A DNA stretch of 64,000 nt from Nitrosopumilus sp. (lineage in GTDB: Archaea; Thermoproteota; Nitrososphaeria; Nitrososphaerales; Nitrosopumilaceae): assembly GCA_965197525.1 (NCBI GenBank), contig OZ240211.1, forward strand, positions 928,001 to 992,000, read 5' to 3'. Below are positions 14,802 to 26,529 of this stretch, in pieces (the stretch's first letter is position 1; each line of letters begins with the position of its first letter). The notes below the pieces were generated by a model that saw nothing but the letters and a program-made list of their open reading frames with translations, was not told the DNA's origin and did no database searches. The translations under genes and the position numbers were made by a program.

Positions 14802-15782
14802 TTAACTAATGGCAAGCATTCTGTCAATTGCCAGACGGGCCTTAGATGCAATCTCTTTAGGAACAGTAACTATATTTTTTTCATTGACTAGTGTATCATA
14901 TACCTTCTCCAATGTGATCATCTTCATGTACTGGCATTCTGCCTTATCTGATGCAGGAACAAATGTTTTGGTAGGATTTTGTTGTCTCATCTTGTAGAGT
15001 ATTCCAGTTTCAGTAGCAACGACAAAACGAGAAGATTTTGACTGACTGACATGATTAAGCATGCCTTCAGTTGAGAGAATTGATACTTTGTGATTATCAA
15101 AACTGCCGTCTGCTACATCGTACATCAGTGGCGTGGTACAACTGCATTCAGGATGAATAACGAATTCGGTATCGCGCATTTCATCCAATTTTTTAGTCAC
15201 GTCTTCAGGAGTGATCCCTGCATGAACATGGCATTCACCTGCCCAAATGTGCATGTTTTTTCTGCCAGTCATCTTTGCAACATATGCACCAAGAAACATG
15301 TCAGGCAAAAACAAGATCTCTTTGTTCTCTGGAATTGCTTTGATGACATTTACGGCATTTGATGAAGTACAACAATAGTCGAGTTCTGCTTTGATCTCTG
15401 CTGTAGTGTTAACATAGCCTACTGATATGGCATCAGGATGCTGCGCTTTCCAATTTCGTAACTCGCCTACTGTAATTGAGTCAGATAGTGAACATCCCGC
15501 ATCTAGATCAGGCAGTAACACCTTTTTCTCAGGACTGATTATAGCAGCAGTCTCTGCCATGAAATTTACACCACAAAATAAGATTGTCTTTTGACTCACA
15601 GTAGCTGCCTGTCTTGATAGACCTAGAGAATCACCTGTAAAATCAGCGATATCTTGAACATCGGGAATCTGATAGTTGTGTGCCAAGATTACCACATCTT
15701 TCTCTTTTTTAAGTCGCATGATCTCGTCTTTGAGGTTTAATGGCGATGAGGATGAAGGTGGTGGTTGTACTAGCATAAGCAA
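14802..15782 (-). CDS. nadA: Quinolinate synthase
   Basis: ILAHNYQ, GDSL.LS, FCGV.FMAE, AGCSL, C.VH, C.YMK. Confidence 0.96.
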   Translation of the reverse strand: MLMLVQPPPSSSSPLNLKDEIMRLKKEKDVVILAHNYQIPDVQDIADFTGDSLGLSRQAATVSQKTILFCGVNFMAETAAIISPEKKVLLPDLDAGCSLSDSITVGELRNWKAQHPDAISVGYVNTTAEIKAELDYCCTSSNAVNVIKAIPENKEILFLPDMFLGAYVAKMTGRKNMHIWAGECHVHAGITPEDVTKKLDEMRDTEFVIHPECSCTTPLMYDVADGSFDNHKVSILSTEGMLNHVSQSKSSRFVVATETGILYKMRQQNPTKTFVPASDKAECQYMKMITLEKVYDTLVNEKNIVTVPKEIASKARLAIDRMLAIS

Positions 15783-15944
15783 TAAAAAATTGCGTTTGTG
15801 GGAATTTAAAGAGTAGGAAATTGTCTAAAAATATCTAAAAATCATGTAAATGTGGCAATTATTGCCATTTACGGTTCTGTGAAGTTATCGGGGGTTATCT
15901 GTCAATCCCTAAAATGTATAAACCTCTAAACCGTAAGATATTCG

Positions 15945-17138
15945 TTGAGAGCGATAAAGTCAATATCACAGAAATATACGCCAAACTCTGATCTAATGGA
16001 TATGATGGCTATATTCACAAAGATGGTCAATCATTGCATCAAGACAGGATTGAAAGAAGACACTCACAATATGAAGAGGTTGTCCATGTTATGTTATCAT
16101 GAATTACGTAATTATGACATCCTGTCTTCATACAAACTAAATGCAATATCACGAGCTGCAGGCATATTATCAAACAGAAAACAATCAATCAAACGAGGTG
16201 TCAGAATAAGAGACCCAATAGTCAAAAATCCCTTTATGACAAACTGTTACGGTATACAACACAGCGGTGCACTATTAACAATCCCATACAAGAAACATAA
16301 CCCAATCAACATTTTACTCAACGTTCACACCCAAAAAATCCTATCTGATCCCGCCTTGACGGTGCGCTCGTTTTCATTGACTGCTCTGAACATCAGTCTT
16401 TGTGTTTCAAAAACAGTACAAGAGATAGAGTGCACCAATCAAGTGGGAATAGACAGAAACCTAAGAAATGTGACGTGTGGGAACAAGCAAGAGGTGACAG
16501 TCTACAAGACAAACAAACTGTTATCCATAAAGGAGAACACAATACACGCTAGGGCAGGATTCCACAGAAATGATCGCAGAAAGAAAGGTCAATTCTGGAA
16601 ACAAAGACAGAGACGAATGAGCAATAGAACAAAGCAGTACATCCACAGAATCTCAAAGGATATGGTATACAACGCAGTCAAAAACAAGACTGCAATCGTC
16701 ATGGAAAACCTGAAAGGAATAAGAAAATTGTACCGAAAAGGAAACAGTCAAGGTAACAAGTACAGGCGTAGATTGAACGGGTGGCAATTCTACGAGTTAC
16801 AACGCCAAATAGAATACAAAGCCCAATGGGTAGGGCTGCCTCCAGTCAAGACAGTAGACCCAGGAAACACGAGCACGCAGTGTCCACGATGCGGAAAGAG
16901 ACTCCAAGAGGACATGCAACAACATCGTAAAATGTCGTGTAATAATTGCGGTTTGTTTATGGACAGGGATATTATTGCTGCCATGAACATATCACGCAAG
17001 CTGCCCCCTAGGTTTAGGGGTAGTAGAGATGACATAGATGAAGCGCAGTCCGGCACTTTTGAGCAGGCGATGACGGAACCCGGCACACCATTGGTAATCC
17101 GAATAGTCGATATGTCAAAGTCAAGTTATAGGGGTTAA
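15945..17138 (+). CDS. tnpB: TnpB RNA-guided nuclease, RuvC catalytic motifs intact
   Basis: RuvC-I GIDRN, RuvC-II IVMENL, Zn finger CPRCG..CNNCG, RuvC-III DRD..AA.NI. Confidence 0.93.
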   Translation: MRAIKSISQKYTPNSDLMDMMAIFTKMVNHCIKTGLKEDTHNMKRLSMLCYHELRNYDILSSYKLNAISRAAGILSNRKQSIKRGVRIRDPIVKNPFMTNCYGIQHSGALLTIPYKKHNPINILLNVHTQKILSDPALTVRSFSLTALNISLCVSKTVQEIECTNQVGIDRNLRNVTCGNKQEVTVYKTNKLLSIKENTIHARAGFHRNDRRKKGQFWKQRQRRMSNRTKQYIHRISKDMVYNAVKNKTAIVMENLKGIRKLYRKGNSQGNKYRRRLNGWQFYELQRQIEYKAQWVGLPPVKTVDPGNTSTQCPRCGKRLQEDMQQHRKMSCNNCGLFMDRDIIAAMNISRKLPPRFRGSRDDIDEAQSGTFEQAMTEPGTPLVIRIVDMSKSSYRG

Positions 17139-17140
17139 CT
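16985..17140 (+). ncRNA. Predicted omegaRNA overlapping the tnpB 3' end (boundaries approximate)
   Basis: By analogy to characterised TnpBs; hairpin CCCCTA-GGTT-TAGGGG (17005-17020); similarity to the second tnpB element breaks down just after GTCGATATGTCAAAGTC (17106-17122). Confidence 0.45.
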
Positions 17141-17164
17141 CCCGATAACTTCACAGAACCCCAT

Positions 17165-17986
17165 TTACGTACCAATAGTGATATCATCTGTGCAGTATCG
17201 TCTCAGAGTTTCGATTGCAGACAGGATAGCCAGCCTGCTAGTCTTAGGATTTAGAGAATCAGGATAGTTTTCAATGGTAAAAATCATCGCACCAAATTTG
17301 CCTTTAGCCTGTATATGATGAGTATTTTTTGTAGAATCCGGATCTGCTACTATCTTTACAAACGTCTTTTCACTGCCAATTCCAGATAGTGATAATAGTG
17401 CTGCAACGTTAATGTTGGCAGGAAACAAATGTACTGCCTCTTTGGCAGCACCCTGAAAGATTGTCGTTGGTGTAGATATAGAGTCCAAGTCCATAGGACA
17501 TTTCTCAAAGAACTTTGCACCTTTAAGAGAACGAGGATGTTTGGTAGTGGTTATTGACAAAGTCTCCAGCTCTGATTTGACTGATTTGATCCCATCCAAT
17601 CCGGCAATAGCCCCTGATGGTAAAATTATTCTTTTCTTAAAATCCCTACAAGCATCAGACAGTATATCATAGACTGACTCGTCTAGCAATGCACCAACGC
17701 TCATAATCATTAGATCACGCTTGTTTTGCAAAACACTTAGTGCAACATCGCGTACGGCATCTTGAGATGCGGCCTCAACTACAATGTTGAGTGGATGGGA
17801 GGACAGTAAATGAGAGTTTTCAACAATTTCAGGTTTGTTTACTAGTTTTTCAACCAAAGACGTAGATGCCTCTTTTGAATCATCATATACATGGGTAATT
17901 ATTGCTGCTGGGATTTTACCAGAGTCAACTGCAAGAGCTATCTGGGTTCCAATTGCACCGCATCCTAAGAGGCCTATTCGTATCAA
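17165..17986 (-). CDS. nadX: L-aspartate dehydrogenase
   Basis: GLLGCGAIG, VEAAS, SVGAL, PSGAIAGLD, FPANINVAA, NPKTSRLA; next to nadA. Confidence 0.93.
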   Translation of the reverse strand: MIRIGLLGCGAIGTQIALAVDSGKIPAAIITHVYDDSKEASTSLVEKLVNKPEIVENSHLLSSHPLNIVVEAASQDAVRDVALSVLQNKRDLMIMSVGALLDESVYDILSDACRDFKKRIILPSGAIAGLDGIKSVKSELETLSITTTKHPRSLKGAKFFEKCPMDLDSISTPTTIFQGAAKEAVHLFPANINVAALLSLSGIGSEKTFVKIVADPDSTKNTHHIQAKGKFGAMIFTIENYPDSLNPKTSRLAILSAIETLRRYCTDDITIGT

Positions 17987-25215: not shown

Positions 25216-26529
25216 GGTTCTGTTGCATTAACGAGTGGTGTTATTAACAATAACAATCACTCAGAACACTGGACTTTGACATATCGACTATCTGGATTAC
25301 CGGTATACAGGGTTCCATCATAGCTGACTCAAAAACGTCAGACTGCGCTTCACTTATGCCATCTCTACTATCCCTAAACCTAGGGGACAGTTTGCGTGAT
25401 ATGTTCATGGCAGCTATAATGTCTCTGTCCATGAATAATCCGCAATTATTACACGACATTTTACGATGTTGTTGCATGTCCTCTTGGAGTTTCTTTCCGC
25501 ATCTTGGACATTGCGTGCTCGTGCGTTTTGGGTATACAAATTTGACTGGGAGCCCGACCCATTGGGCTTTGTATTCTATTTGGCGTTGTAACTCGTAGAA
25601 TTGCCAGCCATTCAATCTACGTCTATACTTGTTTCCTTGACCATTTCCTTTCTTGTACAATTTTCTTATTCCTTTCAAGTTTTCTAACACAATTACAGCC
25701 TTTTTACTAACGGCATTATCCACAATATCTTTTGATATTTTGTGTATGTATTGTTTTGTTCTATTGGCCATTCTTTGCTGTTTTATCTTCCAGAATTGAC
25801 CTTTTTTTCTATTGTCATTTCTGTGAAAACCAGCTCTTGCATGTATTGTGTTCTCTTTGATAGATAACAGTTTGTTAGTTTTATAGAACATTACTTTTTC
25901 ATCATTCCCACATGTGACATTTCTAAGGTTTCTGTCTATACCTATTACATTAGAGCACTCTATCTCTTCTATTTGTTTTGAGACACAAATACTAATGGTA
26001 CCATCATTTAATGAAAATGAACGTATAGTTAATTCAGGGTCAGATAGAATATTTTGAGTGTGATCATTTAACAGTATATTGATAGGTTGTCTGTTCTTGA
26101 ATGGTATTGTTAGTAGTGCACCATTGTGTTTTATACCGTAACAATTAGTGATAAATGGCTTTTTTATTTTTGGATATTTAACTTTGACGCCACGTTTTAT
26201 TGATTGCCTTCTGTTTGATAGCATGCCGGCAGCCCTTGATATTGCACAGATTTTATATGTTGATAAAATATCGTATTGATTTAACTCATGATAACACAGA
26301 TAGGACAACCGTTTCATATTGCACACATCTTCTTTTAGTCCTATTCTAATGGAAAGGTTTACCATTTCTATGAATGTATCCATCAACTCTTTTAGTTCAG
26401 AGTTTGGCGTATGCTTTTGTGTTATTGATTTTATGGCTTGCACGTTATAAATTACAAGGTTTGTTTTTAATAAAAGTGCTTTTTTTATTTATTTGGTTCT
26501 ATTTTACCACTAGTGAATGCAACAGAGCC
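25216..26529 (-). mobile_element. TIR/TSD-bounded non-autonomous element carrying only tnpB (element B, 1314 bp)
   Basis: TIR GGTTCTGTTGCATTAACGAGTGGT / rc GGCTCTGTTGCATTCACTAGTGGT (21/24); 8-bp TSD ATTTCATA at 25208-25215 and 26530-26537. Confidence 0.92.
25244..26443 (-). CDS. tnpB: TnpB RNA-guided nuclease, RuvC catalytic motifs intact
   Basis: GIDRN, IVLENL, CPRCG..CNNCG, DRD..AA.NI; homologous along its whole length to 15945-17138. Confidence 0.93.
   Translation of the reverse strand: MQAIKSITQKHTPNSELKELMDTFIEMVNLSIRIGLKEDVCNMKRLSYLCYHELNQYDILSTYKICAISRAAGMLSNRRQSIKRGVKVKYPKIKKPFITNCYGIKHNGALLTIPFKNRQPINILLNDHTQNILSDPELTIRSFSLNDGTISICVSKQIEEIECSNVIGIDRNLRNVTCGNDEKVMFYKTNKLLSIKENTIHARAGFHRNDNRKKGQFWKIKQQRMANRTKQYIHKISKDIVDNAVSKKAVIVLENLKGIRKLYKKGNGQGNKYRRRLNGWQFYELQRQIEYKAQWVGLPVKFVYPKRTSTQCPRCGKKLQEDMQQHRKMSCNNCGLFMDRDIIAAMNISRKLSPRFRDSRDGISEAQSDVFESAMMEPCIPVIQIVDMSKSSVLSDCYC

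Follow-up and report, generated by a model that had tools for sequence, protein, structure and literature searches.

A TnpB nuclease and its putative omegaRNA as cargo of a multicopy IS6-type transposon in Nitrosopumilus, with a one-sided T-purine motif as candidate TAM

Introduction

What does an RNA-guided nuclease do as the only gene of a transposon that has terminal inverted repeats, duplicates its target site and lacks a transposase? TnpB is the ancestor of Cas12. When an IS200/IS605 element, or an IS607 element mobilised by a serine recombinase, excises, the accepted view is that TnpB cleaves the resulting scarless empty site, whereupon repair restores the element. The question is raised by a locus, here called element A, in a stretch of 64,000 nucleotides (bases 928001–992000, the window) of the genome of Nitrosopumilus sp. 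(assembly GCA_965197525.1), a 99%-complete single contig (OZ240211.1) of 2.21 Mb and 39.6% G+C. As detailed below, element A belongs to a family with IS6-type ends, and at a probability of roughly 0.6 it is best explained as an IS6-type transposon that carries TnpB and an omegaRNA as cargo, with a motif found on one side of its insertions acting as the target-adjacent motif (TAM) of the nuclease.

A first-pass annotation, made from the letters of the window, had described element A as a non-autonomous DDE-type transposon and had not recognised it as any described prokaryotic insertion sequence (IS) class. The second statement went too far. DDE-linked TnpB branches (DDE-1 to DDE-6) within inverted terminal repeats were reported in 2023 by Altae-Tran et al. 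(PMC10691335), together with solo TnpBs whose ends are nearly identical to those of transposase-bearing elements, pointing to movement in trans; the main text of that paper names IS630 and not IS6. A 2026 review lists ISL2, IS630 and IS1031 for DDE-linked TnpB and explicitly raises the role of TnpB for DDE transposons as a question (PMC13565253). No paper linking TnpB to IS6-type elements, or describing the motif rule presented here, was found in the literature. What is new in this report is the one-sided motif across genomes, the control with transposase-bearing elements, the empty site and the selection test.

Results

Element A is a mobile, multicopy element

The annotation of tnpB as the sole gene between perfect 20-bp terminal inverted repeats, flanked by an exact 8-bp target-site duplication, holds. 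The arms are 25 nt long with one mismatch, their outer 20 nt are perfect, and tnpB is the only long open reading frame between them (Table 1); a comparable inverted repeat was obtained in 0 of 100 shuffles. Copies that match element A end to end show 94–100% identity, and in 12 of the 16 the 8-bp duplications are perfect and mutually different. Moreover, a 5.7-kb contig of a related strain (run X6) provides the empty site: it links window position 15864 directly to 17161, skips 1296 bases (1288 + 8) and leaves one CCATTTAC. Both expectations attached to a transposon at this locus, namely several insertions with distinct duplications and an empty site with a single 8-mer, are thus borne out.

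A genome-wide search with the repeat tip revealed a superfamily with GGTTCTGT ends, comprising 34 full-length tnpB elements, 1280–1454 bp long and divided among six or more end subfamilies, and about 10 miniatures, of which eight are tnpB-derived with just the last 90–116 tnpB codons each and a few are smaller still. Protein-less derivatives, at least eight in number and 208–497 bp long, keep the ends and the RNA part described below, and nhmmer with the conserved RNA core gave 51 sites in the genome. Duplications agree at 7–8 of 8 positions in 27 of 42 own-genome elements, all of them distinct, and some copies are without duplications. The nearest-neighbour identity of the copies does not exceed 99.5%, the youngest lying at 99.2–99.5%. 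Together these data show that a non-autonomous IS6-type transposon that makes an 8-bp duplication is present in about 45 copies, element A among them.

With regard to the copies without duplications, no convincing pair with reciprocally swapped flanks was found in this genome. Two inverted tnpB copies at approximately 1.32 and 1.45 Mb of a Nitrosopumilus sp. metagenome-assembled genome (MAG, OZ245003.1; loci L111 and L113) do have swapped flanks, TAGAAACT / TTATGTTA. This pattern is the signature of an inversion of approximately 126 kb via recombination between two simple insertions, and is no proof of replicative transposition. Such an inversion would readily explain why some copies lack matching duplications. 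No insertion site is common to the present genome and MAG OZ245003.1, the orthologous sites being empty or unalignable. The intergenic region that holds tnpB in Nitrosopumilus ureiphilus (CP026995.1, locus L124) corresponds to 1955750–1961052 of the present genome, where a 4.1-kb IS6-type transposase element lies approximately 160 bp off; the region may be an insertion hot spot.

IS6-type ends and candidate transposases

The element tip is identical to the start of the IS6/IS26 consensus GGTTCTGTTGCAAA, with GG at positions 1–2 and G at position 7 (PMC6807381), and one subfamily tip, GGTTCTGTTGCATT, matches the consensus at 12/14. An 8-bp duplication is likewise a mark of the IS6 family (PMC7986276). 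Larger same-ended elements in the genome encode DDE transposases that match PF13610 (IS240/IS6 type) at 42–53 bits (threshold 27). Their best NCBIfam match, over the full length, is "IS6 family transposase" at 102.8–120.6 bits, under the cut-off of 125. These candidate transposases are long, at 378–383 aa, and carry a zinc-binding or SWIM part at the N-terminus; at least five open genes of this type are present. In one such element (genome 746475–748444, 1970 bp, duplication CTATTGTG) a 378-aa transposase (746963–748096) is intact, and the first 18 nt of the element's repeat are identical to those of the tnpB subfamily at 724290, 838811 and 1567235; the similarity between the transposase element and this subfamily breaks off after about 18–26 nt.

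Neither Y1 (PF01797) nor serine-recombinase (PF00239) matches were found in this 99%-complete single-contig genome, and the control genomes did give matches. The reading as a non-autonomous DDE-type transposon with TnpB as sole protein cargo is therefore supported by the copies, the empty site, the ends, the same-ended transposase elements and the lack of a Y1 or serine TnpA match. Because the IS6-like DDE transposases encoded elsewhere in the genome sit in same-ended elements, they are proposed to move element A in trans, and on these sequence features mobilisation of the IS6 type is very likely.

A further IS6-type element (L032, genome 699962–703151), with GGTTCTGTTAAC ends, contains three genes, for a SWIM/DDE transposase, an N6/N4 DNA methyltransferase (PF01555) and an HNH endonuclease (PF01844); its cargo resembles a restriction-modification module that travels as a passenger of the transposon. 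The 18-mer GGTGATGTGACGTTAGCG occurs seven times on one strand between 755583 and 767608 of the genome, often with a spacing of approximately 1572 bp, and is probably part of a large tandem repeat in a giant gene, unrelated to the transposon.

TnpB is conserved under purifying selection

The tnpB product matches Pfam PF07282 (E 4.5e-20) and NCBIfam NF040570, "RNA-guided endonuclease TnpB family", at 121 bits (cut-off 100). Its alignment with solved TnpB/Cas12f chains spans RuvC-II, the zinc finger and RuvC-III, with the motifs ...ENL..., CxxC...CxxC and DRD..AA.NI within the aligned region; the first RuvC aspartate (GIDRN) is read from the sequence and the alignment to the solved chains. The annotated D-E-D triad and zinc finger are in line with these matches, and the start codon, a TTG 72 nt from the left end, is where it had been placed. 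The stop codon lies inside the right repeat.

Substitutions private to single copies were counted across the 16 copies, giving 48 synonymous and 28 non-synonymous changes, 0 stops and a ratio of non-synonymous to synonymous substitution rates (dN/dS) of 0.15. We attribute this to purifying selection on single copies, which fits a nuclease that matters to each copy. The reading frame of approximately 400 aa is intact in about 30 of the 34 full-length copies.

The 3' end of tnpB encodes a putative omegaRNA

Alignment A1 covers the last 140–230 nt of 18 elements from this genome and from four genomes of two other genera. RNAalifold on this alignment gave two helices, in which 11 of 14 pairs hold their pairing through changes on both sides. 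Counted with our own script, 126/126 cells pair in helix H1 and 124/126 in H2, as compared to 28–59 of 126 for controls slid by one column; changes on both sides affect 5/7 pairs of H1 and 6/7 of H2. H3 and H4 are 92–93% paired. Over H1–H4 together, pairing amounts to 92–100%, and both sides have changed in 16/23 pairs. GGUUU and GAACC, both invariant in the alignment, could form a pseudoknot in element A, and this candidate resembles the 3' pseudoknot described for prokaryotic omegaRNAs.

The stretch between the RNA core and the right repeat (approximately 17128–17140 in element A) ranges from 0 to about 90 nt across the subfamilies. In subfamilies A, C and D the variable stretch after the core pairs with the inner part of the element's own right repeat; in some subfamilies it forms a hairpin of its own and does not pair with the repeat, with core and tip conserved. 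The scaffold part is retained in 8/8 tnpB-derived miniatures. An Rfam scan of window positions 15700–17400 gave no family match, merely a chance hit (E 0.94).

In sponge metatranscriptome runs X1 and X2 the summed contig depth is far higher over 16980–17147 than over the 5' part of tnpB, and one RNA contig from the sponge metatranscriptomes crosses the right end into another flank. As these contigs mix organisms and many copies they carry no information on levels, ends or strand, and are not counted as evidence of expression. Based on the conserved fold, the RNA at the 3' end of tnpB can be assigned with good confidence as a putative functional omegaRNA. Taken as a whole, the arrangement suggests that the scaffold extends to the last base of the element and that the guide would start in the flank.

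A one-sided motif follows the cargo

Every element was oriented by tnpB or by the RNA core before the flanking bases were counted. Among the 27 own-genome elements with an intact duplication, T or A stands at position −3 relative to the left duplication, followed by T at −2 (27/27) and a purine (R) at −1 (27/27). TTR directly 5' of the left duplication occurs in 29/42 own-genome elements, at a background of 4.4–4.9%, and its mirror image on the right side in 6/42. Pooling 47/48 compliant cases among the independent intact insertions of about ten genomes, T-purine at −2/−1 has a binomial probability of 2e-38 at a background of 0.145. The motif is present in 6/6 insertions in another genus (G094), in 6/6 in Nitrosopumilus MAG OZ245003.1, in 1/1 in a second MAG and at single copies in three further genomes. 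It is also seen in cultured N. ureiphilus (CP026995.1, about 1.4114–1.4126 Mb; TTG + ACTATTCG), in a Nitrosotalea MAG and in a Thaumarchaeota MAG (JAPPIP), and a 208-bp RNA-only miniature obeys it.

As control served eleven IS6-like elements that bear a transposase and have perfect duplications; they come from the present genome and nine relatives. They show the motif at 2/22 half-sites, which equals background (Fisher 3e-14 versus the tnpB insertions). The tnpB elements with the shared 18-nt repeat comply, with ATG, TTA and TTA, and with TTA again in a relative whose right arm deviates, whereas two transposase elements with the same repeat show the motif on neither side (ACA/CAA and TGA/ATT). 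Because the motif is missing to either side of transposase elements whose repeat is that of compliant tnpB elements, it goes with the cargo and not with the ends. A symmetric target signature, TR-N8-YA (Y, pyrimidine), was rejected: to the right of the duplication Y occurs in 13/27 and A in 11/27, as in the background. On balance, the (T/A)-T-purine motif is probably the TAM of this TnpB.

A second, longer TnpB family (open frames of 450–580 aa in elements of approximately 1.64 kb, with different inverted ends of approximately 12 nt, GGGAATTA..., and 8-bp duplications) is found at genome positions 51692, 546736, 875842, 880668, 1029469, 1330305 and 1984997. The triplets upstream of its four intact copies, AAG, GTA, AAT and TGC, do not include (T/A)-T-purine but are too few to judge.

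Table 1. Features of element A and of a related element, in window coordinates
Feature	Position	Strand	Remarks
Element A, whole	15873..17160	+	1288 bp; 16 end-to-end copies in genome
TTG, (T/A)-T-purine motif, proposed TnpB TAM	15862..15864	+	directly 5' of left duplication
Left copy of 8-bp duplication	15865..15872	.	CCATTTAC, exact
Left terminal inverted repeat	15873..15897	+	tip GGTTCTGT
tnpB	15945..17138	+	397 aa from TTG start; alternative ATG start possible at 15997
omegaRNA scaffold (putative)	16994..17160	+	overlaps last ~45 tnpB codons, ends at final base of element
Helix H1	17000–17006 with 17018–17024	+	alignment A1
Candidate pseudoknot	17011–17015 (GGUUU, H1 loop) with 17156–17160 (GAACC)	+	invariant columns, without covariation
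Helix H2	17030–17036 with 17111–17117	+	alignment A1
Helix H3	17050–17054 with 17063–17067	+	alignment A1
Helix H4	17074–17077 with 17098–17101	+	alignment A1
Terminal hairpin	17120–17133 with 17141–17154	+	built from right repeat
Right terminal inverted repeat	17136..17160	-	holds tnpB stop codon, 17136–17138
Right copy of 8-bp duplication	17161..17168	.	CCATTTAC, exact; proposed guide nt 1–8
Second tnpB element, same superfamily	25216..26529	-	genome 953216–954529

Genomic setting

Element A is inserted between an aspartate dehydrogenase gene and nadA, both on the minus strand. An apparent pair of nadX (aspartate dehydrogenase) and nadA (quinolinate synthase) is thereby split (window 15782–17165), the nadX stop codon falling within the duplicated 8-mer; in a related strain nadX and nadA are adjacent. 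The second tnpB element of the window (Table 1) has ends GGYTCTGTTGCATT..., a duplication TATGAAAT and TTG 5' of its left duplication.

Discussion

Proposed mechanism

TnpB systems that have been characterised place the TAM 5' of the left end and derive the guide from the right flank (PMC13565253). Transferred to element A, transcription would read through the right end, and the guide would consist of the right copy of the duplication and the flank beyond it, from 17161 to about 17180, an assignment that we infer from this known geometry. The empty site, composed of TAM, duplication and right flank, would then be a perfect TnpB target, the predicted sequence 3' of the TAM being CCATTTACGTACCAATAG. 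The filled site would match the guide over 8 nt only before GGTTCTGT begins, and would be spared. TnpB may thus cut empty copies of its own site, and repair from the filled copy would restore or spread the element. Such empty copies could be present on a sister chromosome, enter with incoming DNA, or be left when slippage between the two duplications removes the element. Element A would be an IS6-mobilised homing module, in which only insertions that landed beside a TAM in the right orientation are retained; such retention would account for the near-universal motif in tnpB copies and its lack in transposase-only relatives. All copies are old enough, at no more than 99.5% identity, for retention or homing to have filtered random insertions. 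Still, retention or homing as the cause of the motif bias is put forward tentatively, as an explanation with somewhat less than even chances.

Several points weigh against the interpretation as an IS6-mobilised transposon with a TnpB-specific TAM. The cognate transposase that was expected is found in part: same-ended IS6-like elements exist and match one tnpB subfamily over 18/18 nt, whereas no transposase element with the exact subfamily-A repeat (GGTTCTGTGAAGTTATCG) was found in this genome, and for subfamily A the link to a transposase that would act in trans is the shared 8-nt tip. IS6-family transposition is thought to be replicative, without excision (PMC7986276), and the classical benefit of restoring an excised donor is therefore not directly applicable. 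For an archaeon that is largely clonal and of low ploidy, homing by itself would hardly seem strong enough to raise compliance from approximately 15% to approximately 98%. A TAM of 3 nt with two strict positions is short for TnpB, and a distant relative (G112, 36% identity) shows TAT instead. Finally, cleavage, TAM use and guide processing by this TnpB are predictions from the present analysis.

Alternative explanations

The most direct competitor places the motif at integration rather than at retention: TnpB, with or without its RNA, would bind a TAM and open or bend the DNA just downstream, and the IS6-type transpososome would preferentially carry out its 8-bp staggered strand transfer there, with the left end on the TAM side. 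This would explain why compliance is nearly absolute at 47/48, the youngest copies (99.2–99.5% identity) included, why no spacing separates the motif from the staggered cut and its orientation is fixed, and why transposase-only elements with ends of the same type lack it; the argument, not computed, that simple homing brings little benefit in a clonal, low-ploidy host points the same way. Set against this, no copy exceeds 99.5% identity, so that selection had time to act on all of them, and the tnpB-less RNA miniatures comply too, which means that TnpB would need to act in trans. We know of no precedent for guide-independent, TAM-directed targeting of a DDE transposase, and CRISPR-associated transposons (CAST) insert tens of bp from their target with the help of dedicated adaptor proteins. 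We regard insertion licensed in this way as unlikely, though worth considering.

Less probable still is an intrinsic asymmetric target preference of the mobilising transposase, unrelated to TnpB, which could stem from differing sequences just inside the two ends. The inner ends do differ, with a hairpin at the right and a promoter-like region at the left; the failure to find a transposase element with the subfamily-A repeat leaves room for this view, as does a control set that is small (11), with transposases mutually 35–100% identical. Conversely, among elements with the same 18-nt repeat those with tnpB comply and those with a transposase do not, the motif is held across TnpB lineages down to about 45–50% identity and across many repeat subfamilies, and the review of the IS6 family mentions no target specificity. 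The annotation had itself offered an alternative to the transposon reading, in which an IS1341-type tnpB element entered a small IS6-type miniature inverted-repeat transposable element (MITE) once by chance and the composite spread. MITEs with the same ends do exist in the genome. However, the tnpB-less miniatures are internal-deletion derivatives that keep the 3' end of tnpB, not empty ancestors; no IS200/IS605-like junctions lie inside the ends, and the 99%-complete genome gave no Y1 or serine transposase match. Moreover, the structured RNA extends as far as the final bases of the repeat, with a terminal hairpin that is made from the repeat and shows matching changes in subfamilies A, C and D, while the architecture is common to genera whose TnpBs are only approximately 50% identical, and the distances from repeat to tnpB are the same in all subfamilies and several genera. 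Given this constant architecture, chance nesting is rejected as very improbable. The family must nevertheless have begun when an IS6-type element captured tnpB long ago, and this event is part of the preferred explanation.

Relation to known systems

The DDE branches of Altae-Tran et al. share with element A the position of TnpB inside inverted terminal repeats common to DDE-transposase elements and a tnpB 3' end within 250 bp of the transposon end. The TAM-like motif outside the target duplication sets the present elements apart from that account, the main text of which reports none. Typical IS6/IS26 members are about 800 bp long and encode a transposase alone, and the 2021 record for the family holds one passenger-gene member and two MITEs (Varani et al., PMC7986276); Harmer & Hall (2019) doubt the place of archaeal "IS6" elements in the family (PMC6807381). 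The tip and the 8-bp duplication are as in IS26 and IS257, and the candidate cognate transposases are of the PF13610 type. Unlike these, the element described here is without a transposase and carries TnpB and an RNA as cargo, and the candidate transposases score below the NCBIfam IS6 cut-off.

With the IS200/IS605 modules (ISDra2, IS608, IS1341), the present family has in common the nuclease family and a scaffold that overlaps the 3' end of tnpB and ends at the right end, as well as the proposed TAM 5' of the left end, the right-flank guide and the homing logic (PMC13565253). IS200/IS605 elements have hairpin ends, no inverted repeats, no duplication and a Y1 TnpA whose target site is the TAM; they insert 3' of a short target that stays unduplicated. 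Element A, in contrast, has a 25-nt inverted repeat and 8-bp duplications and does not classify as IS1341; here the proposed TAM lies outside the duplication, the duplication would be the start of the guide, and the transposase shows no TAM preference. Fanzor resembles the present case in that a TnpB-type nuclease is cargo of DDE transposons with terminal inverted repeats and target-site duplications. In Fanzor the 5' duplication (e.g. TA, TTAA) contributes to the TAM, and its 3' counterpart falls within the scaffold, whereas in the present family the duplications share no sequence and what is conserved is the motif just outside them. The miniatures are comparable to IS200/IS605 derivatives resembling palindrome-associated transposable elements (PATE-like), being short and protein-less with ends and RNA part kept; they differ from these in their IS6-type inverted ends, their 8-bp duplications and the same one-sided motif.

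Conclusions

The role of TnpB for DDE transposons becomes a sharper question in this family, as DDE elements duplicate their target and excision is not believed to occur in those of the IS6 type. At the same time a concrete handle is provided: about 45 copies and a candidate transposase in one genome, a covarying scaffold fused to the transposon end, and a one-sided, cargo-dependent site rule that predicts both TAM and guide. The family is present in a cultured ammonia-oxidising archaeon, which makes the predictions directly testable, and with 397 aa and a predicted short TAM this compact archaeal TnpB adds to the pool of candidate editors. It is a rather speculative thought that the cargo fixes the final site of a DDE transposon, either as TnpB licenses insertion at a TAM or as it is essential for persistence. 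If the licensing version were true, TnpB would be linked to DDE transposition in a natural, minimal way that needs no guide, a possible stepping stone to RNA-guided transposons, and this in a lineage that includes the cultured Nitrosopumilus ureiphilus, which carries a copy.

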